DNA of 7,547 nt from a virus (lineage: Duplodnaviria; Heunggongvirae; Uroviricota; Caudoviricetes), in the IMG/VR virus record IMGVR_UViG_2585427710_000007, positions 1 to 7,547 of that record. One strand, written 5' to 3'. Shown piece by piece: positions 1 through 7,547 of the stretch (within the stretch, counting starts at the first letter, position 1; each line of letters starts with the position of its first letter). Below the pieces are notes generated by a model. The model saw only the letters and a program-made list of their open reading frames with translations, ran no database searches and was not told the origin of the DNA. A program made the position numbers and the translations under genes.

Positions 1-164
1 ACAAATACTGCTCGGCGATCTATCAGCCAACGCCCACGAATTTTTTGTGGTCTTGGAACGATGTATCCTAGTTTTCCGTATTTCACCAGGGTAGTGTTTG
101 TTATTGGGAGACTGAACCGTTTTGGTTTCCACTCATCGAGCGTTATCAGGTACTGTTCGCTCAT
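1..164 (-). CDS. Hypothetical protein, N-terminal 54 codons only (gene runs off the left edge)
   Basis: Minus-strand ATG at 164..162 with GGAG 9 nt upstream (rev-comp of 171-174). Open frame to position 1, reading MSEQYLITLDEWKPKRFSLPITNTTLVKYGKLGYIVPRPQKIRGRWLIDRRAVF. Absent from the ORF track, apparently for length. Does not look like RecT. Confidence 0.4.
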   Translation of the reverse strand, partial: MSEQYLITLDEWKPKRFSLPITNTTLVKYGKLGYIVPRPQKIRGRWLIDRRAVF

Positions 165-225
165 GGCTATCACTCCGGAACGCGCCAGTTGCAGAATACC
201 AACGACAACTGGCGACGGTTGAACA

Positions 226-2628
226 TTAAAAATCAGCCTGACTCGGGATCAGTTTTTGCCAGATAGCTGAAACGTATTTTGCCTGGTAACGCGCATCGTG
301 CAGGGCATTATGGCGCTCACCCTCAAATGTGATGACACTTCGAGCATCGAAATCCATCACCAGTCCCATAGCAACCATCGTTCTTACATCGCGATCATTG
401 GTGTAACGCCATGGGCAGGGGATCCCCTGCCGTTCATATGAACGGCGTAAAATTACGTTGTCAAAGTTGGCTCCATTTCCCCAGACCTGAACAAAAAATT
501 CACCGGAGTTTTCGTCGATAAATTCCCGTAATTGCAACAGTGCGTCATCCAACGGGATTTCATCGGTCAGAATGGCTGATTGTGCTTCCCGTGACTGTTT
601 CAGCCACCACTTAATGGTGTCCCGATCGATGACTCCGCCCGCGGTTTCCAGATCGATAGTTTTGCTGAATTCTGGCCCCATCTCTCCGGTTGCCGGATCA
701 AAAAACTTACCGGCCAGAGCGTTTATTGGCGCATCAGGATTTTTGCCCATTGTTTCAAGGTCAATCATCAGATGGTGCCACAACCTGCTGGTGGATGTGC
801 TTTCGTGATGACCGTTCACCTTAATTAAGGGATTTGCTGTCTCGCCTGTTTCATTATTGCCATTGGCATGTTGATCGCCTTCGGTGCACTCCTTGTTCGG
901 GTATACGGCACTCTCCATTTCCTCTGGATCTTTCTCCCGGGCTTCATCCTGGCTTTCTTCGTTGAATGTTTCCTGGTATGTTGCGTCGCCCATTACCGCG
1001 CCACAGTCAGGACAGTTGCCGTCGCCGGTCTGACCGCAGGCGGTGCAGACTTTTTCCGGTTCTTGTTGCTCTTCTGGTTCAGGCTGTTTCGTTTCCGGCT
1101 CGTTTTGTTCCGATTCGTGCTGGTTCTGGTTCACAGAATCGCGGGTTTCAATCCCCTTCACCCATTTCGGATCATTCGGGTCGCTAATCCCTTCAACAAA
1201 TTCTCCGTGAGAAGCAGCCAGTAATTTATCTGCATCGACAGGATTTTTGGGGGGAATGTTTTTCCTGGCTTCATGGAGTTCTGCACGCAGTTTCTGATAT
1301 TTCGCATCAACAGAATTTATCTGTGGCTGAGCATCCATCGACTGCGTGTCCTGATTATGTTCAGTTGTATCCGGTTCCACTGCTTCAGTCGTTGCCTGTT
1401 CATCTGCCATTGCGCCAGTTGGCTGCGGTTTTTCTTCATCATCCTGTTTTCCTTCTTTTGTTACACGCTGCGGCATTGGAGCAGAGGAGCGACCGCAGGC
1501 AATATCCACGATTTCTGGATCAGGGTTGGCATGGTCGGTTTCGGTCAGTACTTTGTTCAGATATTCGGTAACACGGTGGGGAGTAGCCTCGATACCAATT
1601 GGTGCTTCTTTCACGGACGCAACCACTATCGCGCGGGAATAATCCAGGTGACCAGGCATGGCGATGAATTTGTCACGAAAAACAGAAAAGGGCGGCTTAT
1701 TCTCTGAAACGATTTCTTCAATGCGTTTGGCGTGTGCCGGATGTGGATTGTAAATATCGATGTCCATTGAACGGGCCAGAACGCCAGCGGCAACGTCACG
1801 TTCCACTGACGCATCATCGTGGACAAAACCTTCACCGCGATCGGTAAGAATTCCTCCGCCAGCATTAGCGCCGGATGGCGTGCGGCTGATGCGTAAAACA
1901 CGATTTCCTTTCATCCACTCTTTTGTCAGCAGACCTCGATCGGTATAGTCAGCGTCCAGGTATGCTTCGAAAAAAGCAGTCATTAACCCCAGATTGGAAT
2001 TAACGGGATTAGGGAAAACTTTGTCTGTGTCGCGTACCAGTTTGTGAAGGTCGCGAATCTCCAGCGGGTCGAGCAGCTTTGTGTTGTGGGAAATAGCCAG
2101 GGCAGTAACAGCAGGCAGTTCTTCAGCTCGTGCGATATGTAATGCCTGAAGTTCTTCCCGTGAAACGTGCGTTACCGGTTTTTCGCTGCCATGTTGCGCA
2201 AGCCAGCGAATGGGCAGTTCCTGACCGGAAATCGGCAGGAGCATATTATCCTCAATCTCAGCCATGTCTTCGCCATTGACGTTGGTATTGTCAGTGCTGG
2301 CAGGTTTGTCCTGAACTGAGGGGGAAGGCGCTATAAATATCATTGTGATGCCATCTTCTCCGCCTTTTTCATAGCGGTTGCAGAATTCGGTATCAAACAC
2401 ACCTTCAGGCGGCAGGTCATTAACAATAGGCAAATTCACGCGAACAGGTTTTTTGAAATCCTCTTCGTCAAATCCAGCATCGTCCATTGCGACAACACCC
2501 CGTGATATTGCAACCGATAATTTTTTTGCTGTGCGCCAGTAAAAACCGCCTTTAATCCCAAGGCGTTTTCTGACTTTGTCATTTTTGGCTTCGTAATACA
2601 GTGCAATTTCTTCTTTATCAGTGCTCAT
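226..2628 (-). CDS. RecE-like (exodeoxyribonuclease VIII-like) protein, 800 aa, with a C-terminal DnaQ-like DEDDh 3'-5' exonuclease domain
   Basis: Track ORF with GAGG 7 nt upstream of the ATG at 2628. N-terminal and central regions resemble my recollection of Rac RecE (for example [27 protein letters not shown]). There is an acidic low-complexity linker and a C-x2-C-x7-C-x2-C zinc-ribbon-like motif ([16 protein letters not shown]). The C-terminus carries Exo I (MIDLETMG), Exo II ([10 protein letters not shown]) and Exo III ([13 protein letters not shown]) motifs. Confidence 0.85.
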
Positions 2629-2720
2629 TGATAAACCTCATAACTATTTTAAGGTTGTACGAATCCCTGCCATTGCTGGCATACTTAATCAACGGGTATG
2701 GCGTTAATATGGCTGGCGGG

Positions 2721-2909
2721 TTATCCAGCCGGTATTTCGTTATTCAGGTACAGCGATACTTTTTTTAACGGGAGACATTCGCCAGAAATTTTTTGCTCGT
2801 CTCTTGCACGGAGGCATGATTCTTTACTGGCATAAATTCCGGTAATCACTTTCTGTGGCTCACCTGTTATCAGAAAAACCGTCATCATCAGTGTAAACGC
2901 TGAACTCAC
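2721..2909 (-). CDS. ydfD: YdfD-like small protein with a hydrophobic N-terminus (lysis-type peptide)
   Basis: GTG start at 2909 with GGAGG 6 nt upstream; GTGA start/stop overlap with dicB. The N-terminus SSAFTLMMTVFLITG is hydrophobic. Sits immediately downstream of dicB, as ydfD does in Qin. Family assignment is from memory and synteny. Confidence 0.6.
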   Translation of the reverse strand: MSSAFTLMMTVFLITGEPQKVITGIYASKESCLRARDEQKISGECLPLKKVSLYLNNEIPAG

Positions 2910-3094
2910 TGCTGCCCTCCGAAAATGCCAAGTTCAAGAAGGGCAATTCTGGAGAGTATGGAATTATCATTGAGAAGATAAGGCTCATATTTTCTCATCC
3001 TGATGGCGTCCTCAGTAAACTCCCGGTTACTGAGCAGAATACCAATATTAAAACACCCTTCAGACGTATTAACGTTTGGTAGTGACGTTTCCAT
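2906..3094 (-). CDS. dicB: Cell division inhibitor DicB homolog (62 aa)
   Basis: ATG at 3094 with GAGGA about 7 nt upstream. The product METSLPNVNTSEGCFNIGILLSNREFTEDAIRMRKYEP... matches my recollection of the DicB N-terminal half (LPNVNTSEGCF, FTEDAI). It lies about 175 nt downstream of a DicF-like element, as in Qin. Confidence 0.8.
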   Translation of the reverse strand: METSLPNVNTSEGCFNIGILLSNREFTEDAIRMRKYEPYLLNDNSILSRIALLELGIFGGQQ

Positions 3095-3271
3095 TATCGC
3101 GTCCTCAACAATGAATTTTGTGATGTGGTGCCTGGTGCCTCCAGGTGACGTTAACCAGTTAACAATTAACGCCGGATTGTTAGTTGATGTCTGTTACGCC
3201 AGTAAAAGACCGCTTGTTTTAACTGTTCCGCGTGCGCTTAGCCGCATTCACCGCATCACAAAATACACTTT

Positions 3272-3311
3272 AAAAATGGCGGATATCCATTTCCGCCGAA
3301 TCACCAGAAAA
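3272..3311 (-). ncRNA. dicF: DicF-like small RNA candidate (shortened variant) ending in an intrinsic terminator
   Basis: Minus-strand sequence UUUUCUGGUGAUUCG-GGCGGA-aauggaua-UCCGCC-AUUUUU. The 5' motif UUUCUGGUGA matches the start of K-12 DicF as I recall it. A 6-bp GC stem (3292-3297 / 3278-3283) with an 8-nt loop is followed by a U-run (3272-3277). Position upstream of dicB matches Qin. The 5' end is not defined. Confidence 0.5.
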
Positions 3312-3652
3312 GTGATAACAGAGGTTGTTGTGGCGGTGTTGTCACTCAGGCGTATGGTCAACCTGACAACCCGGTGCATTTTCTGGAGTAATGGAGGAAG
3401 CCCCAGCCATACTTACCGCCGCGCCATTTCGCGGATTGCCACAACCGGAAGCGCACGATCGAATTAAATTTAACGACGACCTGTACAGAGAGACTAACTT
3501 CGCCGTGCGCTTTCGTGTTATGCCCTGACTTTTCAGGGATATGTTCTTTCAGTAAACTGTCAGTGCCGGATTCTTATCCGTGTCCGGCGCACGACCACAC
3601 GTGACAGCGTGTTGGTCTCCATTTTTAACCCAGAACCTCTATGGAGGATAAA

Positions 3653-3955
3653 ATGCACTCTAAATCAAATCGATATTATGTTCATGTGCAGTTATTTGAA
3701 GCAACAATGGAACAGGAGAAAAAGTTCGAGACTCTGATGCCAAATTTTAAATACTCCAGGATGATTAATGAAGGTGACGTTGAATATAAATTGTTGCCAG
3801 GGGCATACGTTATTCAGTCAACGCTCAATTCGAATCAAATACTTGAACAAACCTTTTCTGTTGCTAATTCAGTTGGTGTTAATGCTCACATTTTTGTTTG
3901 CCCTTATGATGAAAGTGCAACCCTTTTGCCTTGTGCTGATTTTGGCACTTACTAA
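3653..3955 (+). CDS. Hypothetical 100-aa protein; AT-rich moron in reverse orientation within the leftward operon
   Basis: GGAGG at 3643-3647, 5 nt before the ATG at 3653 (the track start at 3641 is less likely). The ORF is visibly AT-rich compared with the flanking sequence. No transmembrane segment or recognisable motif. Product MHSKSNRYYVHVQLFEATMEQEKKFETLMPNFKYSRMINEGDVEYKLLPGAYVIQ... Confidence 0.6.
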   Translation: MHSKSNRYYVHVQLFEATMEQEKKFETLMPNFKYSRMINEGDVEYKLLPGAYVIQSTLNSNQILEQTFSVANSVGVNAHIFVCPYDESATLLPCADFGTY

Positions 3956-4259
3956 CTAAATTTAATTTATGTTCAAGTTCGGCTATTTGCATACGTAGTG
4001 CTTTAACCATTGTTTCATGATAAATCTCACTCACTCCACCTGGGTGTGGGGTGAATTTAGGTGAATAATCTTTGTTTTCAGAACTCAGCTTCTCTTCGTA
4101 CAGCTTGATAAAGGCATTACGCACATTATGGGATATATTGTCGATGGTTTCTTTTTCTACGGTACTCAGGTCAAGAGTCGCCAGTTGAGAACGAACTATA
4201 TTCGCTGCCATTTCCTGGAATGGTACTGGTAAATCTTTAAATTCCATCGTCAACCTCAT
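3879..4259 (-). CDS. Hypothetical 126-aa protein at the ydfB/ydfC position of a dicB-type operon
   Basis: The ATG at 4259..4257 overlaps the ydfA-like stop (ATGA), suggesting translational coupling. An alternative ATG at 4247 has GAGG 6-8 nt upstream. The last 25 codons or so are read antisense to the 3' end of the plus-strand gene 3653-3955, giving a His/Lys-rich tail. Confidence 0.6.
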   Translation of the reverse strand: MRLTMEFKDLPVPFQEMAANIVRSQLATLDLSTVEKETIDNISHNVRNAFIKLYEEKLSSENKDYSPKFTPHPGGVSEIYHETMVKALRMQIAELEHKLNLVSKCQNQHKAKGLHFHHKGKQKCEH

Positions 4260-4411
4260 CAGTCAGTGTTTCTGGCTAACCAGCGACGCGCGCCAGCTTC
4301 AGTTTTAAACGTTTTGCTTCTGGTATACGTCATCGCGGTAAACGTGCCGTCCAGGTTGGAGAATACTCCGCATACCAGAGATTCGTTGTTGCCAAGATTG
4401 AGCGTATCCAT
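4259..4411 (-). CDS. ydfA: YdfA/YdaF-like small protein (DUF1391-type), 50 aa
   Basis: ATG at 4411 with GAGG about 6 nt upstream. Product MDTLNLGNNESLVCGVFSNLDGTFTAMTYTRSKTFKTEAGARRWLARNTD matches my recollection of Qin YdfA. First gene of the leftward operon. Below the ORF-track length cutoff. Confidence 0.65.
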   Translation of the reverse strand: MDTLNLGNNESLVCGVFSNLDGTFTAMTYTRSKTFKTEAGARRWLARNTD

Positions 4412-4640
4412 GTTGACCTCATTTACCCTTAACGCCGGGTCGCGGAACTAAAAACCTGCTGCGCTGTTATACAAAGTGTTCCCGCCGTCATGTTCATACG
4501 CCTCGGGCTGGCTACTTAACCCCTGACCACTGCCGGGTAACTCGAAGTATTGCCCTGCGTTCTGTTGAATGGGGTGGGTTGGTGAAACAAGGATGCACTT
4601 TTAAAGTTATTATGTCAACACTTATAAAGTTAGGTTGTGG

Positions 4641-4669
4641 GCAACAAAAACCGCCTCGAGATGAGACGG
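4641..4669 (-). terminator. Rho-independent terminator of the paaR2-paaA2-parE2-like operon
   Basis: On the minus-strand RNA, a 7-bp GC-rich stem (4663-4669 paired with 4651-4657, one G-U pair) with a 5-nt loop, followed by UUUUUGUUG (4641-4650), starting 12 nt after the parE stop. Confidence 0.6.
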
Positions 4670-4682
4670 CCCTGTGAAAGGG

Positions 4683-4970
4683 TTAGTTCTGCTTGGGGAA
4701 TTGGCGTCTGGCGTGTACTACACTCACGATCTCAATGCTTAAAGTGGCTACACGGTAAAGAATTATATAGTTAGGGTGAGCTACAATCTCACGCAAGCCA
4801 GGTACTCTGTCGCTTGGTGGGTATAAATACGGGTGTTCGGATAACGGCAGCACACACCCCCTTAATCGCTGCCATAAGCGTTCTGCCGCATCTATGTCGA
4901 AACGAGCAATATAACTAGTTATATCATCTAGGTCGGTATCTGCGCTTTCAAGCCATAACACGGGTAACAT
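4683..4970 (-). CDS. parE2: ParE-family toxin (ParE2-like) of a three-component TA system
   Basis: 95-aa ORF, MLPVLWLESADTDLDDITSYIARFDIDAAERLWQRL...HARRQFP, typical of the RelE/ParE fold and matching my recollection of E. coli O157 ParE2. Starts 3 nt after the paaA2 stop. Paralog 1 versus 2 cannot be settled by eye. Confidence 0.85.
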   Translation of the reverse strand: MLPVLWLESADTDLDDITSYIARFDIDAAERLWQRLRGCVLPLSEHPYLYPPSDRVPGLREIVAHPNYIILYRVATLSIEIVSVVHARRQFPKQN

Positions 4971-4973
4971 TTA

Positions 4974-5162
4974 CTACTTACTCCGTTCCTTGCGCATTTT
5001 AGCAAAGCGTTCTGCCATTCTGCGCTCAACCTCGTCATGGGGAATTGCTGGGCGCGGATTTGCAAGGCTCGCTGCTACTTTCGCACGCAGCCATTCGTTG
5101 TAACTGTTTTCTTGTTCAATGGTTTCGAACTCAGAAACCATTGGTGAAAGGGCCGTATTCAT
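4974..5162 (-). CDS. paaA2: PaaA2-like antitoxin (62 aa)
   Basis: Internal ATG at 5162 with GGAGG 6 nt upstream. Product MNTALSPMVSEFETIEQENSYNEWLRAKVAASLANPRPAIPHDEVERRMAERFAKMRKERSK, close to what I recall of PaaA2. The 83-aa track ORF from 5225 is rejected as an overextension into paaR. Confidence 0.85.
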   Translation of the reverse strand: MNTALSPMVSEFETIEQENSYNEWLRAKVAASLANPRPAIPHDEVERRMAERFAKMRKERSK

Positions 5163-5191
5163 GGCACACCTCCGTCTGTGTATGGTGGTCA

Positions 5192-5599
5192 TTATGCTCG
5201 ATGCCCTTTCCGGGCAGCGAGCCATCTTTCAATTGTGCGCTCCATTAACTCTTTTTTGTCTTTCATCTCCTGAAGCATTTGTCCCTGTTCTTCCTCTGGG
5301 AATGCACCAAATGTCTGAAGTAGCTCTCTTTGCTTCGGACCTATTTTCATTGTGTCAGGTACCACAATCTGTTCGTCCTCACTTGGTGGCAACATAAACC
5401 AATATGGAGGGAATCCTGTTACTTCAGAAAGTTTATCAAGATTAGCCATTGATGGGCTTGTGATGCCATGAACCCACTTTTGGACCGATTGTTGGGCAAC
5501 ACCTATTCTGCGGGCTAGTTCTGCTTGCTTAAGCCCTGTTTTTTCCAGCACCAGTTTTATCCGGTACGTGGTTATTTCAAGAGTGGTCATTCGCTTCAT
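5192..5599 (-). CDS. paaR2: PaaR2-like HTH (XRE/CI-like) transcriptional regulator, in the cI position
   Basis: 135-aa ORF with a helix-turn-helix region (LKQAELARRIGVAQQSVQKWVHG). Divergent from the Cro-like gene and first gene of the TA operon. The ATG at 5599 has no clear SD, so it may be leaderless; Met4 is an alternative start. Confidence 0.8.
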   Translation of the reverse strand: MKRMTTLEITTYRIKLVLEKTGLKQAELARRIGVAQQSVQKWVHGITSPSMANLDKLSEVTGFPPYWFMLPPSEDEQIVVPDTMKIGPKQRELLQTFGAFPEEEQGQMLQEMKDKKELMERTIERWLAARKGHRA

Positions 5600-5706
5600 G
5601 CATTCATTTTACACAAAAAAAGTGTAGCCAGCACAATCAGCTTGAAAGTGTTGATAGTGTAACTTTTAGAGTGTATAAGTGGTGTCGATTGATTGGAGTT
5701 AGCGAT
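5600..5706. promoter_or_regulatory. Divergent promoter/operator region of the immunity switch
   Basis: Rightward sigma70 candidate: -35 TTGATA (5651-5656), 17-bp spacer, -10 TATAAG (5674-5679). Leftward candidate -10 TAAAAT (rev-comp of 5606-5611), which would start transcription at or next to the paaR ATG. Palindrome TACAC-N7-GTGTA at 5610-5626 and repeated AGTGT motifs at 5647, 5656 and 5670. Confidence 0.5.
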
Positions 5707-5985
5707 ATGCATAAATGTTTAAAAAATAAAATTCGCCAAATAGGGTTATCCCAAGCGGGTGTTGCTCGCTTGATTGGGTTGCCACAGCAGGTTGTATGTC
5801 GATGGGTTAATGGGCAACAGGTCCCTGCATCAAGGGTTTTACAACTATGTGAGATTATGGCGTGGACTGTCACCCCCCACGAGCTCCGACCAGATATTTA
5901 CCCTAACCCAACCGATGGCCTGCCTTGTGGACGTAAGAGTACAGCGAATGAATTACTGGCGGTGAACAATGAAAATCACACCTGA
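5707..5985 (+). CDS. ydaS: Cro-like HTH protein of the YdaS family
   Basis: ATG at 5707 with GGAG 8 nt upstream (5695-5698); the track GTG start at 5671 is less likely. HTH region IGLSQAGVARLIGLPQQVVCRWVNG. Divergent from the repressor and overlaps the ydaT-like start by 17 nt. Confidence 0.7.
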   Translation: MHKCLKNKIRQIGLSQAGVARLIGLPQQVVCRWVNGQQVPASRVLQLCEIMAWTVTPHELRPDIYPNPTDGLPCGRKSTANELLAVNNENHT

Positions 5986-6490
5986 ACAGGTTTGCGAGGC
6001 TCTGGATGCCTGGGTATGCAGACCAGGAATGACGCAGGAGCAGGCGACGATATTAATTACTGAAGCCTTCTGGGCTCTACAGGAACGCCCGAACATCGAT
6101 GTTCAGCGTGTCACGCTTGATGATGGCGGGGTTGATCAGCGTGCGCTTGGCGTTAACCGGGTGAAGATATTCGAACGCTGGAAGGCTATCGACACCAGGG
6201 ATAAGCGTGAAAAATTCACGGCGCTGATTCCGGCAATTATGGAGGCTATCCGGATTAGTGATTTCAGGTTGTACCGCGAAATTACTGACGGAAAAAGCAT
6301 TACGTACATGATTGCCGGGTTAAACAAAGAATATGGAGATGTGGTGGAGTCCGGGCTGCTTTTTGCAGATCCAGCTGTTGTGGAACGTGAGACAGACGAG
6401 CTTATAGAAAAAGCAATCGCTTTCAAGCGTGCCTATCGTCACCAGTACCAACAAAAAGCCGGATGGAATTATGAGCCTTCTTTTTGCTGA
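5969..6490 (+). CDS. ydaT: YdaT-family protein (functional CII analogue in Rac-type prophages), 173 aa
   Basis: Position immediately after the Cro-like gene with overlapping start. The motif REKFTALIPAIMEA resembles my recollection of Rac YdaT. Confidence 0.65.
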   Translation: MKITPEQVCEALDAWVCRPGMTQEQATILITEAFWALQERPNIDVQRVTLDDGGVDQRALGVNRVKIFERWKAIDTRDKREKFTALIPAIMEAIRISDFRLYREITDGKSITYMIAGLNKEYGDVVESGLLFADPAVVERETDELIEKAIAFKRAYRHQYQQKAGWNYEPSFC

Positions 6491-7436
6491 ACGCCCGCTG
6501 GTTATAAACACACAGCTGGCGATGAAGATTGGTTTAAACGAAGCCATTGTGTTGCAGCAACTGCATTACTGGTTGAGGGATACCAGTTCCGGCATGGAAT
6601 GTGATGGCGTTCGCTGGATTTACAACACAACGGAACAATGGCTGGAACAGTTTCCGTTCTGGTCAGAGTCAACGTTAAAGCGTGCGTTTGCAAGTCTGAA
6701 AGCGCTGGGGCTTTTGCGTAGCGAAAAGCTCAATAAATCGAAGCGTGATATGACTAATTTTTACACAATTAACTACGATAGCGCGCTTTTAGATGATGGC
6801 AAAGTGAACGAATCCATCGGGTCAAAATGCGCCACTCCATCAGGTCAAAATGACACGATGGAAGAGGTCAAAATGAAACGTTCCATTGGTTCAAAACGGC
6901 CCAATGTCATCAGGTCAAAATGGCCCGATGATCCTACAGAGAATACAACAGAGAATACAACAGAGAATAAAAAACTCTCTTGTCCGGACGCTTCGCAACC
7001 GGACGAGTTGACGGCTGAACAGGCGTTTTTAACCCGCCATCCTGATGCAGTTGTGTTCAGCGTGAAAAAACGCCAGTGGGGAACCCGGGAGGATTTGACA
7101 TGTGCGCAGTGGATCTGGGGGCGGGTTGTAAACCTGTACGAACAGGCTGCCAGTGACGATGGTGAGATCACGCGACCGAAAGAGCCCAACTGGACGGCGT
7201 GGGCCAATGACGTGCGCACAATGCGGATGCTGGATGGAAGAAGTCACAGACAAATTTGCGAAATGTTCAGCCGGGCACAACGGGATCCGTTCTGGATAAA
7301 AAACATCAAGAGCCCGGAAAAACTCCGTGAGAAATGGGATGAACTGGTTATTCGACTGTGGCGTGGTCCCGCGCAGCGTTGCGTGAATCATATTTCTGAA
7401 CCGGATACCGAAATTCCGCCGGGTTTCAGGGGGTAG
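6471..7436 (+). CDS. Phage replication initiator / replisome organizer (lambda O-like) with an internal origin
   Basis: ATG at 6471 preferred over the track start at 6429, which would overlap ydaT by 62 nt. The N-terminal region (LVINTQLAMKIGLNEAIVLQQLHYWL...) is typical of replisome organizer N-domains. Iterons lie inside the gene. Followed 6 nt later by the next gene. Confidence 0.7.
   Translation: MSLLFAERPLVINTQLAMKIGLNEAIVLQQLHYWLRDTSSGMECDGVRWIYNTTEQWLEQFPFWSESTLKRAFASLKALGLLRSEKLNKSKRDMTNFYTINYDSALLDDGKVNESIGSKCATPSGQNDTMEEVKMKRSIGSKRPNVIRSKWPDDPTENTTENTTENKKLSCPDASQPDELTAEQAFLTRHPDAVVFSVKKRQWGTREDLTCAQWIWGRVVNLYEQAASDDGEITRPKEPNWTAWANDVRTMRMLDGRSHRQICEMFSRAQRDPFWIKNIKSPEKLREKWDELVIRLWRGPAQRCVNHISEPDTEIPPGFRG
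6814..6925. repeat. Candidate replication origin: five iterons with about 23-bp periodicity
   Basis: Core GGTCAAAATG at 6820, 6843, 6866 and 6913, plus a degenerate copy GGTTCAAAACG at 6888. Spacing is 23, 23, 22-23 and 24-25 bp, often preceded by CATCA. This is the arrangement of ori-lambda inside the O gene. Confidence 0.7.
6936..6971. repeat. Three tandem 12-bp repeats (ACAGAGAATACA) immediately after the iterons
   Basis: ACAGAGAATACA at 6936-6947 and 6948-6959, then ACAGAGAATAAA at 6960-6971. They encode TENTTENTTENK within the initiator and form an A-rich stretch next to the iterons. Confidence 0.7.
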
Positions 7437-7442
7437 CGCATC

Positions 7443-7547
7443 ATGAAAAACATTACGTCAGGTGGTGTTCTGGCAAGAGTCAGCAGATTTGTGCCGCAGG
7501 ATGCAATCCCTCCGTACCGTACGGTGACGGAGTGGCGGGAATGGCAG
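7443..7547 (+). CDS. Start of a downstream replication-module gene (possibly P/DnaC-like helicase loader), partial
   Basis: ATG at 7443, 6 nt after the initiator stop, with a G-rich SD-like stretch upstream. Open to the window end, reading MKNITSGGVLARVSRFVPQDAIPPYRTVTEWREWQ. The function is inferred from position only. Confidence 0.4.
   Translation, partial: MKNITSGGVLARVSRFVPQDAIPPYRTVTEWREWQ

Follow-up and report, generated by a model that had tools for sequence, protein, structure and literature searches.

A DNA stretch of 7547 bp (positions 1 to 7,547 of IMG/VR virus record IMGVR_UViG_2585427710_000007, called the window below) carries on its plus strand a gene for a replication initiator that resembles the O protein of phage lambda, and the middle of this gene holds a row of 23-bp iterons, followed by an A-rich tract of tandem 12-bp repeats (12-mers) and by a GC-rich inverted repeat. 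Taken together, the comparisons described here suggest, with a probability of roughly 0.8, that positions 6792-7007 are the vegetative replication origin of a lambdoid Escherichia coli prophage, embedded in the linker-coding middle of the initiator gene. The features of this gene are as follows:

6471..7436, plus strand: O-like replication initiator gene, 321 amino acids (open reading frame (ORF) 6429-7436, likely ATG at 6471; boundaries of the RefSeq coding sequence)
6471..6785, plus strand: putative N-terminal origin-binding domain (N-domain), about amino acids 1-105, predicted from an AlphaFold2 model to be a winged helix-turn-helix
about 6793..6809, plus strand: iteron 0, degenerate, core tggcaaagtg with 7/10 matches, in the 23-bp register (from the listing of the repeat family)
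6815..6837, plus strand: iteron 1, CATCGGGTCAAAATGCGCCACTC
6838..6860, plus strand: iteron 2, CATCAGGTCAAAATGACACGATG, with the best dyad; the most invariant iteron across relatives
6861..6883, plus strand: iteron 3, GAAGAGGTCAAAATGAAACGTTC
6884..6906, plus strand: iteron 4, with the degenerate core GTTCAAAACG; the same degenerate form is kept in relatives
6908..6930, plus strand: iteron 5, CATCAGGTCAAAATGGCCCGATG, adjoining the A-rich tract
6936..6975, plus strand: A-rich, purine-skewed tract, 2.8 copies of ACAGAGAATACA followed by AAAAAAC; proposed DNA-unwinding element (DUE)
6979..7007, plus strand: GC-rich inverted repeat CTTGTCCGG-N11-CCGGACGAG, with 9-nt arms at 6979-6987 and 6999-7007; right border of the conserved block
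7026..7352, plus strand: coding part of the lambda-O-like C-terminal domain (BLASTP to lambda O)
7365..7433, plus strand: DnaT-like C-terminal tail (..SEPDTEIPPGFRG)

The exact iteron core, GGTCAAAATG, occurs four times, at 6820, 6843, 6866 and 6913, and is absent from the rest of the window on both strands, and a fifth copy in register, at 6889, has a degenerate core. Five iterons about 23 bp apart had been described in a first-pass annotation of the sequence, and this description holds, as four exact copies and one degenerate one, with the five 23-mer units (array 6815-6930) spaced by 23, 23, 23 and 24 bp. When up to two mismatches are allowed, the core is matched 13 times elsewhere in the window against 10.5 expected, which is chance level, so that the signal lies in the four exact, clustered and phased copies. 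Each iteron (consensus CATCnGGTCAAAATGnnnCGATG) is an imperfect 23-bp palindrome of the form CATCnGGTCA-AAA-TGnnnCGATG, and the symmetry suggests that a dimer binds, as in the case of lambda O (PMC5043065). With its neighbouring elements the array spans codons ~108-180 of the 321-codon gene, in agreement with the earlier placement of all the repeats inside the O-like ORF (6471-7436). Because the period of 23 bp is not a multiple of three, and because the core is translated in three frames (as S-K, G-Q-N and V-K-M in the ORF translation), the iterons are not a peptide repeat. At the position of the degenerate iteron 0, Klebsiella/Citrobacter-type relatives (loci L008-L014 and L322) read GGTCAAAGTG, and among alleles of the gene low third-position diversity sets in as early as 6786.

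The 12-mers were identified by Tandem Repeats Finder at 6936-6969, with a period of 12, 2.8 copies of the unit ACAGAGAATACA and 100% matches, which agrees with the earlier description of A-rich 12-bp tandem repeats placed directly after the iterons. The tract to which they belong (6936-6975, 40 nt) is 70% A+T, has 77.5% purines on the top strand, and in its low duplex stability falls at the 98-99th percentile of the window, among the least stable 1-2% of 40-mers, while the peptide encoded over the 12-mers reads TENTTENTTENKK. To its right lies the GC-rich inverted repeat, which is kept in loci with other iteron types (L013, L015, L019) and also with other C-terminal domains (L008-L014), and at which third-position diversity is 0.02-0.05. 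The origin had earlier been placed at 6814-6971; this interval contains the core region, but the origin appears to be wider, at about 6792-7007, with the addition of iteron 0 and the inverted repeat.

Evidence that the DNA of this block is itself under selection comes from 61 distinct 321-amino-acid alleles, collected from viral and genome contigs. In these alleles, third-codon-position diversity falls to 0.029 within the interval 6792-7005, from 0.169 elsewhere in the gene (Mann-Whitney p=2e-10), whereas the diversity at first and second positions is not reduced inside the block (0.039 vs 0.027 outside). The usual codon periodicity of substitutions vanishes across the block, where synonymous sites are more conserved than replacement sites, and this is the pattern that selection on the nucleotide sequence itself would give. 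The constrained block extends from ~6786 to ~7010, takes in the GC-rich inverted repeat and so exceeds the interval of the first-pass annotation, and constraint on the A-rich repeats and on the GC-rich element is as strong as that on the iterons. As judged from the sequences of the alleles, the substitution pattern is one of ongoing purifying selection on the DNA block. The frozen synonymous sites, together with the three-frame reading of the iterons, a C-terminal domain homologous to that of lambda O and the equivalent position in the gene, support the earlier proposal that the layout is of the ori-lambda type.

The relation between the iterons and the N-domain can be followed across relatives in which one part of the gene has been exchanged or has diverged. 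Some relatives, in Citrobacter, Raoultella, Enterobacter and Izhakiella, share only the first 178-223 residues of the initiator and have an unrelated C-terminal domain, and despite this the iterons, the 12-mers and the GC-rich repeat are retained (L008-L012, L014), as they are in the closely similar Klebsiella element L322; the sequence comparison places a module boundary just right of 7007. Diverged N-domains carry other dyad iterons at the same site and with roughly the same 23-bp spacing, among them TGTTCAAAATGAACA in a Bacillus contig (N-domain 57% identical), GAGGGCAAATTGCCCTC in Erwinia phage Stean (N-domain 61% identical) and GGACAAAATGGCCC in Staphylococcus phage StauST398-3 (N-domain 49% identical). 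Further iterons are CCGCAAAC..GCGG in a Citrobacter locus whose whole protein is 39% identical (tblastn), and GTGTCACTA..AGTGACA in a Rahnella locus with no N-terminal match, for which tblastn covers residues 152-295 only. Across the family, the iteron centre CAAAATG/CAAATTG persists and the arms change. The earlier proposal that the iterons are recognised by the N-terminal part of the protein that they encode is consistent with both observations, in that iterons stay with the N-domain after a swap of the C-terminal domain and diverged N-domains have iterons of their own.

The number of recognisable sites was compared in 71 distinct genes of the GGTCAAAATG group with an in-register array, of which 63 have five, 4 have four and 4 have six. 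As for the 12-mers, nearly all alleles have three, with four in L007 and five in L028, so that their number does vary between relatives, as the first-pass annotation had suggested it could, but to a modest extent (3, 4 or 5); iteron number varies as well (4-6). In homologous initiator genes the repeats are present, periodic and co-varying. The plaque-forming phage HannyBb, whose allele is ~88-89% identical, has five iterons and three 12-mers in what is its only evident replication gene or module. Another member (L322; NZ_CP095244.1, Klebsiella pneumoniae p21080237_4) is a 41.7-kb circle deposited as a non-mobilizable plasmid that is a lambdoid phage genome with genes for a repressor, Cro, the initiator, Dam methylase, RusA and holin; it carries six iterons and three 12-mers, and an initiator of this type is its only evident replication gene, but as evidence that the module is in use it is weak, since it may be just an induced phage in the assembly. 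In Trabulsiella guamensis (L006, positions 800-940), there is a 59-nt insertion upstream of the array, and there are extra iterons, with one copy inverted (GGTCATTTTGACC); three ACAGAGATTACT units are followed there by one unit of GATCCGTCAGATAAG, and the GATCCGTCAGATAAG motif replaces the 12-mers in L015 and L019. Three contigs (L004, L007, L021) whose labels name metagenome-assembled genomes of Bacillota, Veillonella parvula and Collinsella encode a protein 88-98% identical in amino acid sequence to that of the E. coli prophage and are most likely binning contamination. The version in the contig labelled 'Bacillus sp. WMMC1349' (L020) is Firmicute-like, and this contig looks genuine.

The 12-mer is of wider interest, as its core, CAGAGAnTA, recurs in distant phages. 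Within the enterobacterial 12-mers, variation is seen at a replacement site, which encodes N, I or T, and at the final base of the unit, whereas ACA and GAG never differ at their synonymous third bases. In a sample of 15 initiator genes picked from the spread of tblastn matches solely by N-domain similarity, 9 have tandem CAGAGAnTA, in 2-4 units at 10-12 nt, directly after the iterons and at 40-58% of the gene length; in a shuffling control, a CAGAGAnTA pair arose in at most 7/2000 shuffles per gene. Among the nine are genes of phages of Erwinia, Pseudomonas (two), Klebsiella, Staphylococcus and Bacillus (two), and of a contig labelled Bacillus sp., and the sampled loci range from 35% to 62% G+C. 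The three Firmicute phage genes and the Bacillus sp. contig have units 10 or 11 nt apart, in different codon phases (I-D-Y vs T-E-T). Distant members in Lactobacillus, Flavobacterium and Burkholderia have degenerate CAGATAnnA repeats, while the Stenotrophomonas locus has no CAGAGAnTA repeats and that of Vibrio a single loose match only. A scan for two tandem units returned at least 120 viral contigs, with the N-domain directly upstream in 61, against a handful expected by chance, a figure that comes from the information content of the pattern and a rough estimate of the collection size; in most of the remaining contigs the motif sits in the middle of other ORFs, which on visual inspection of their sequences resemble winged-helix initiators. 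In the part of the literature library that was searched, no paper combining the iteron core or 12-mer strings with origin terms was found, only unrelated primer matches.

These sequence comparisons lead to the conclusion that the 12-mer is more than a linker and belongs to the origin as a conserved DNA element. The first-pass annotation had treated it as a linker of variable copy number; the copy number does vary, but the motif is conserved at the DNA level in distant phages. More generally, the initiators with this N-domain appear to share one origin grammar, of CAAAWTG-centred dyads every 22-24 bp followed by 2-5 copies of CAGAGAnTA every 10-12 nt. Tentatively, and with somewhat less than even confidence, tandem CAGAGAnTA(C) can be proposed as a distinct, sequence-specific origin element common to a large, cross-phylum family of initiator-embedded phage origins. 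Such a family may include phages of Enterobacteria, Pseudomonas, Erwinia, Staphylococcus, Bacillus and Geobacillus, with iteron arms that have diverged around CAAAATG/CAAATTG, and the likeliest role of the repeats may be that of a site for strand-specific capture of single-stranded DNA (ssDNA) or for entry of the helicase.

The initiator protein, which is labelled 'hypothetical protein' in RefSeq (WP_000054520.1), matches PHROG 391, 'replication initiation O-like' (E=7.8e-91), and also PHROG 277. The protein has no match in Pfam, its N-domain (the first 114 residues) failing to match PF04492 (Phage_rep_O) even at E<=10, where lambda O scores 5.7e-36; an hhalign comparison of the N-domain profile with lambda O residues 1-138 gave a probability of 0.05, and NCBIfam, like Pfam, names no family for this domain. 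The N-domain is therefore not that of lambda O. In the AlphaFold2 model (mean pLDDT 83.5), the domain has the topology H-H-strand-strand-H-H-strand-strand, and the top matches of the model in the PDB are the iteron-binding N-terminal domains of RepA from staphylococcal plasmids (4pql, 5kbj, 4pt7), followed by many winged helix-turn-helix regulators; these scores are modest, with a template modelling (TM) score of 0.45-0.55 and E ~3e-3 or higher. On this model, the domain is predicted to be a winged helix. The alignment for the structure prediction, its sole use, came from a protein search with the N-domain in which the matches listed (120) were all shorter than 200 amino acids and many marked as partial; a search for loci in viral contigs with the N-domain alignment returned close E. 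coli relatives only and added no diversity. By tblastn, N-domain homologues were found in 143 phage records from Gram-negative and Gram-positive hosts, which include Vibrio, Staphylococcus, Bacillus, Klebsiella, Pseudomonas, Lactobacillus, Flavobacterium and Listeria, and the proteins go under inconsistent names, among them 'DnaD-like helicase loader', 'conjugative transposon protein' and 'transcriptional regulator'.

The C-terminal half is related to lambda O, in which this part makes contact with the helicase loader. A BLASTP alignment of 155 columns (E=7e-25) pairs residues 140-294 with lambda O residues 144-270; identity is 35%, with most identities after residue 200. The last 23 residues, GPAQRCVNHISEPDTEIPPGFRG (pattern SEPDxxIPPGFRG), closely resemble the extreme C-terminus of E. 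coli DnaT (PDB 6aep, 2ru8, 9zbt), and this tail was all that a sequence search of solved structures with the O-like protein matched; it probably accounts for the name 'Primosomal protein I' that the phage mEp460 homologue bears. The E. coli dnaT gene immediately precedes dnaC, and here the DnaT-like tail is encoded just upstream of a dnaC-like gene. The tail of the initiator co-varies with the next gene: where it reads ..WNSPEAWENTL (L006, L012, L019), a lambda-P-like gene follows, and where it reads ..P(P/A)GFRG (L008, L011, L013-L015, L323), the next gene is DnaC-like, a 150-165-amino-acid ORF or, in HannyBb, a Ren-like gene without a loader. This suggests that some phages with the ..P(P/A)GFRG tail use the host DnaC directly, and the co-variation fits a tail that chooses the loading route. 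The downstream partner in the window is thus DnaC-like and does not correspond to lambda P.

By analogy with the systems compared below, a mechanism can be proposed in which dimers of the predicted winged-helix N-domain would bind five or six dyad iterons of 23 bp, whose central A-tracts would favour bending. The bent complex, together with negative supercoiling from rightward early transcription, would then melt the adjacent tract of ACAGAGAATACA units, and one strand of the melted CAGAGAnTA tract might be held by the initiator in a sequence-specific manner, as by TrfA of plasmid RK2 and RepA of pPS10. Finally, the lambda-O-like C-terminal domain and the DnaT-like tail may bring in the host DnaB through the phage DnaC-like loader. 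It is proposed that the CAGAGAnTA repeats would in this scheme act in a sequence-specific way in unwinding or ssDNA capture and would not be mere AT-rich filler.

Several observations weigh against the assignment of the origin to 6792-7007, or limit how firmly it can be made. The evidence for an origin is comparative and comes entirely from sequence. The N-domain has no detectable sequence relationship to the origin-binding domain of lambda O, and its pairing with the iterons is suggested by co-variation and by a modest fold match (TM ~0.55, E ~3e-3). The least stable 40-mer of the O-like gene is not the A-rich tract but 6732-6771, left of the array at the end of the part encoding the N-domain; thermodynamics was therefore rejected as the sole locator of the unwinding site, and the 6732-6771 segment shows ordinary synonymous diversity, unlike a constrained DNA element. 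The alleles in the diversity test are related and recombining, so that the p-value is only indicative, and a recent sweep could lower diversity; a sweep would, however, lower it at all three codon positions and so fails to explain a drop confined to the third. For the 12-mer motif, codon phase 1 (T-E-x-T) predominates, and some contribution at the peptide level is possible.

A rival reading is that the repeats matter only in the protein, as a low-complexity linker produced by slippage with no cis-acting role for the DNA. It is true that the encoded peptide is a polar linker joining two folded domains, and the 12-mer is in frame, varies in copy number (3, 4, 5) and has T-E-x-T as its commonest reading. 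Against this, the iterons yield unrelated peptides in their three frames, conservation across the block is higher at synonymous than at replacement positions, the 12-mers vary at the replacement site and the last base while the third bases of ACA and GAG are invariant, and in the phages of Staphylococcus and Bacillus successive motifs are 10 or 11 nt apart and so shift in phase. A purely peptide-level repeat is excluded for the iterons and unlikely for the 12-mers, and as an account of the whole block it is hardly credible. Nor is it at all probable that the iterons are binding sites of the initiator or of another phage protein with a regulatory role only, for autoregulation or a roadblock to early transcription, for handcuffing in the control of copy number or for the exclusion of related phages, with the origin elsewhere. 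Plasmid iterons do also serve copy control and incompatibility (PMC4980987, PMC5043065), cloned fragments of the lambda replication region can inhibit related phages (PMC3349717), and the window holds only part of the prophage, so that other origins are possible outside it; but the locus has the full lambda grammar of iterons, A-rich asymmetric tract and inverted repeat in lambda's order and position, the A-rich and GC-rich elements, which a pure operator would not need, are equally constrained, and nothing else in the window is origin-like, with matches to the DnaA box at chance level.

An origin at 6792-7007 could also be one by descent that is inactive here, in a decaying prophage whose repeats persist for lack of time. 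Many Rac/Qin-like prophages of E. coli are defective, and an identical copy in E. coli O26 strain RM10386 sits in a prophage whose integrase is broken by IS600, but in E. coli strain 99-3311, which carries the window, every neighbouring early gene has an intact annotation, the pattern of substitutions in the 61 alleles is one of ongoing purifying selection, and alleles that are ~88-89% identical serve plaque-forming phages; an inactive origin is thus improbable, although less far-fetched than either of the preceding accounts. A larger share of doubt attaches to the 12-mers, which in a true origin might be no more than generic, meltable A+T-rich DNA, similar among phages through shared ancestry and a mild peptide preference. 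Replacement of the AT-rich tract of lambda leaves the binding of O to its iterons unaffected (PMC7466680), and the role of the tract is usually described as easy melting; the copy number is tolerant (3-5); and the repeats are degenerate (CAGATAnnA) or missing in Lactobacillus, Flavobacterium, Burkholderia, Stenotrophomonas and Vibrio. On the other side, loci of 35% to 62% GC retain the motif despite complete divergence of the iteron arms, it is read in more than one codon phase, and its G and C positions are invariant, which AT-richness does not require. The count of contigs with the tandem motif (at least 120, and 61 with the N-domain directly upstream) also stands against the roughly estimated handful expected by chance, and the exact sequence of the DUE matters in oriC and RK2 (PMC5043065, PMC4081077). 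Generic A+T-rich DNA is accordingly judged unlikely, but it is the alternative that most deserves to be kept in mind, and the preferred reading remains an origin with a DNA element of conserved sequence.

The surroundings of the gene are those of an early operon in a prophage. The whole 7547-bp window is a 100% match to a prophage beside potC in strain 99-3311, and the element is a lambdoid (Rac/Qin-like) prophage, with the right part of the window being its early right operon. In the 99-3311 prophage, the gene order is integrase, excisionase, an 800-amino-acid exonuclease, dicB, a RelBE pair and a helix-turn-helix (HTH) repressor, then a Cro/YdaS-like gene, a YdaT-like gene (in the cII position), the 321-amino-acid O-like gene and the DnaC-like gene; the annotation gives intact genes for the integrase, excisionase and repressor and for the cro-like, O-like and dnaC-like functions. 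The segment 6429-7547, used as a query and consisting of the O-like gene with short flanks, was matched at >=80% coverage in 1739/5426 complete E. coli genomes, and DNA versions that are ~88-89% identical occur in phages mEp460_ev081, HannyBb and PhiR42_1. The identity of the copy in O26 RM10386, mentioned above, extends over 6429-7547. Other features of the window are as follows:

5195-5599, minus strand: HTH repressor gene
5608..5637, plus strand: candidate pR-like rightward early promoter, consensus match 9/12, weak
5969-6490: YdaT-like gene, whose end overlaps the O-like start (6471) by 20 nt
6845-7219, minus strand: ORF of 124 amino acids that overlaps the well-supported O-like frame
7443..7547, plus strand: 5' end of the DnaC-like ATP-binding helicase-loader gene, cut by the end of the window (NCBIfam NF009043, E=1.2e-11)
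4683-5225, minus strand: RelE/ParE toxin and RelB antitoxin pair
2906-3094, minus strand: dicB cell-division inhibitor gene and DUF1482 gene

The overlap of 20 nt between the YdaT-like and O-like genes is consistent with translational coupling in the early operon, and the full DnaC-like gene is annotated in RefSeq as 'ATP-binding protein' (WP_000790460.1, 741 bp). The pR-like candidate lies within the divergent intergenic region between the repressor and the Cro/YdaS-like gene, upstream of the cro-, ydaT-, O- and dnaC-like genes. A scan of 5500-7547 for promoters and terminators gave matches at chance level only, including the weak pR candidate at 5608-5637 and a weak minus-strand promoter-like match at 6802-6775; a role of the repeats as an internal promoter was considered and is supported by neither. 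An Rfam scan of the whole window at gathering thresholds returned nothing, and an RNA element is not indicated. Boxes for DnaA (TTATNCACA, up to one mismatch) number 11 in the window against 6.9 expected, with none in the origin block, so that an involvement of DnaA at the origin has no support from the box scan, and no other origin-like feature was seen in the window. The RelE/ParE-RelB pair is located between a DUF1391 gene and the repressor, i.e. within the immunity region, and the equivalent immunity region of the O26 RM10386 prophage is without it. The dicB and DUF1482 genes lie downstream of the 800-amino-acid exonuclease gene, as in Qin/Rac-type prophages.

The origin itself is textbook lambda-style biology with a new iteron sequence, and the conserved CAGAGAnTA repeat is the part worth following. 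For annotation, the result concerns a gene that is a 'hypothetical protein' in RefSeq and has an N-domain without a Pfam family, yet is present in 1739 of the 5426 complete E. coli genomes. The shared grammar offers a cheap prediction of prophage origins and of the specificity of replication modules (compatibility, exclusion), including those in Shiga-toxin-producing strains, and the repeat is a candidate sequence-specific unwinding element for the loop-back and ssDNA-capture models developed from plasmid Rep proteins. Should the motif be a specific element, it would provide a simple signature by which origins could be located in unannotated phages and prophages by the thousand, and the opening of DNA by winged-helix initiators would gain a tractable model.

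Among known systems, the closest is ori-lambda, which also lies in the middle of the initiator gene, and alignment of the proteins puts the present array at the position of lambda's origin. The four dyads of lambda are spaced by 20, 24 and 23 bp, compared with 23, 23, 23 and 24 bp for the five iterons here, and in both cases iterons with central A-tracts, which in lambda favour bending (PMC7466680, PMC5043065), have an A-rich, purine-skewed tract of ~40 bp next to them on the same, promoter-distal side, and beyond it an inverted repeat. The A-rich tract is 77% AT and 70% purine in lambda, where its strand asymmetry is a noted feature (PMC5043065), and 70% and 77.5%, respectively, here, and the inverted repeat, in the same relative place, has arms of 12 nt in lambda and 9 nt here. 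Lambda has four iterons and the Shiga toxin (Stx) phages 933W and P27 have six (PMC7466680), and the number varies in a like manner among the present relatives. The present system differs from lambda in its iteron core (GGTCAAAATG, unrelated to lambda's TCCCTCAAAACGAGGGA), in an N-domain that is not Phage_rep_O, in an A-rich tract made of a tandem 12-mer, in a partner gene that is DnaC-like and not P, and in a protein that ends in a DnaT-like tail. The lambdoid phages 82, phi80, 21 and P22 (gene 18) have initiator/origin modules of swapped specificity. In lambdoid modules, the specificity for the origin goes with the N-terminal part of the initiator and that for the loader with the C-terminal part, and this pattern is matched here. 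Lambdoid replication modules and the 'Eru' types of Stx phages (PMC8044961) are mosaic and modular, and the same modular behaviour is seen in the present relatives. For the Eru types, that study is silent on iterons and origins, and no description of the present iteron type was found.

Another point of comparison is the iteron plasmids (RK2 TrfA, pPS10 RepA, staphylococcal RepA_N), in which a winged-helix initiator is combined with an iteron array beside a DUE with short repeats. In RK2 and pPS10, it has been shown that the Rep protein (TrfA and RepA, respectively) binds one strand of the DUE in a sequence-specific manner (PMC4081077, PMC10602881). Like the 13-mers in the DUEs of oriC and RK2, CAGAGAnTA is a short motif that is repeated within the A+T-rich tract and is kept more closely than base composition would demand. 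The iterons of plasmids usually bind monomers and lie outside the rep gene (PMC5043065). Unlike these, the iterons described here are dyads inside the gene, and the structural similarity between the initiators is modest, with no sequence similarity detected. Origins inside the gene for an initiator or replisome organiser are also found in phages of Gram-positive bacteria, as in SPP1, where oriL lies in gene 38, and in the rep/ori of lactococcal phages of the P335 type. The N-domain homologues in phages of Staphylococcus, Bacillus, Geobacillus and Listeria have the same layout as the E. coli prophage, with iterons followed by CAGAGAnTA, but differ from it in their C-terminal domains and helicase partners, having DnaD-like domains or DnaB-type helicases encoded downstream.

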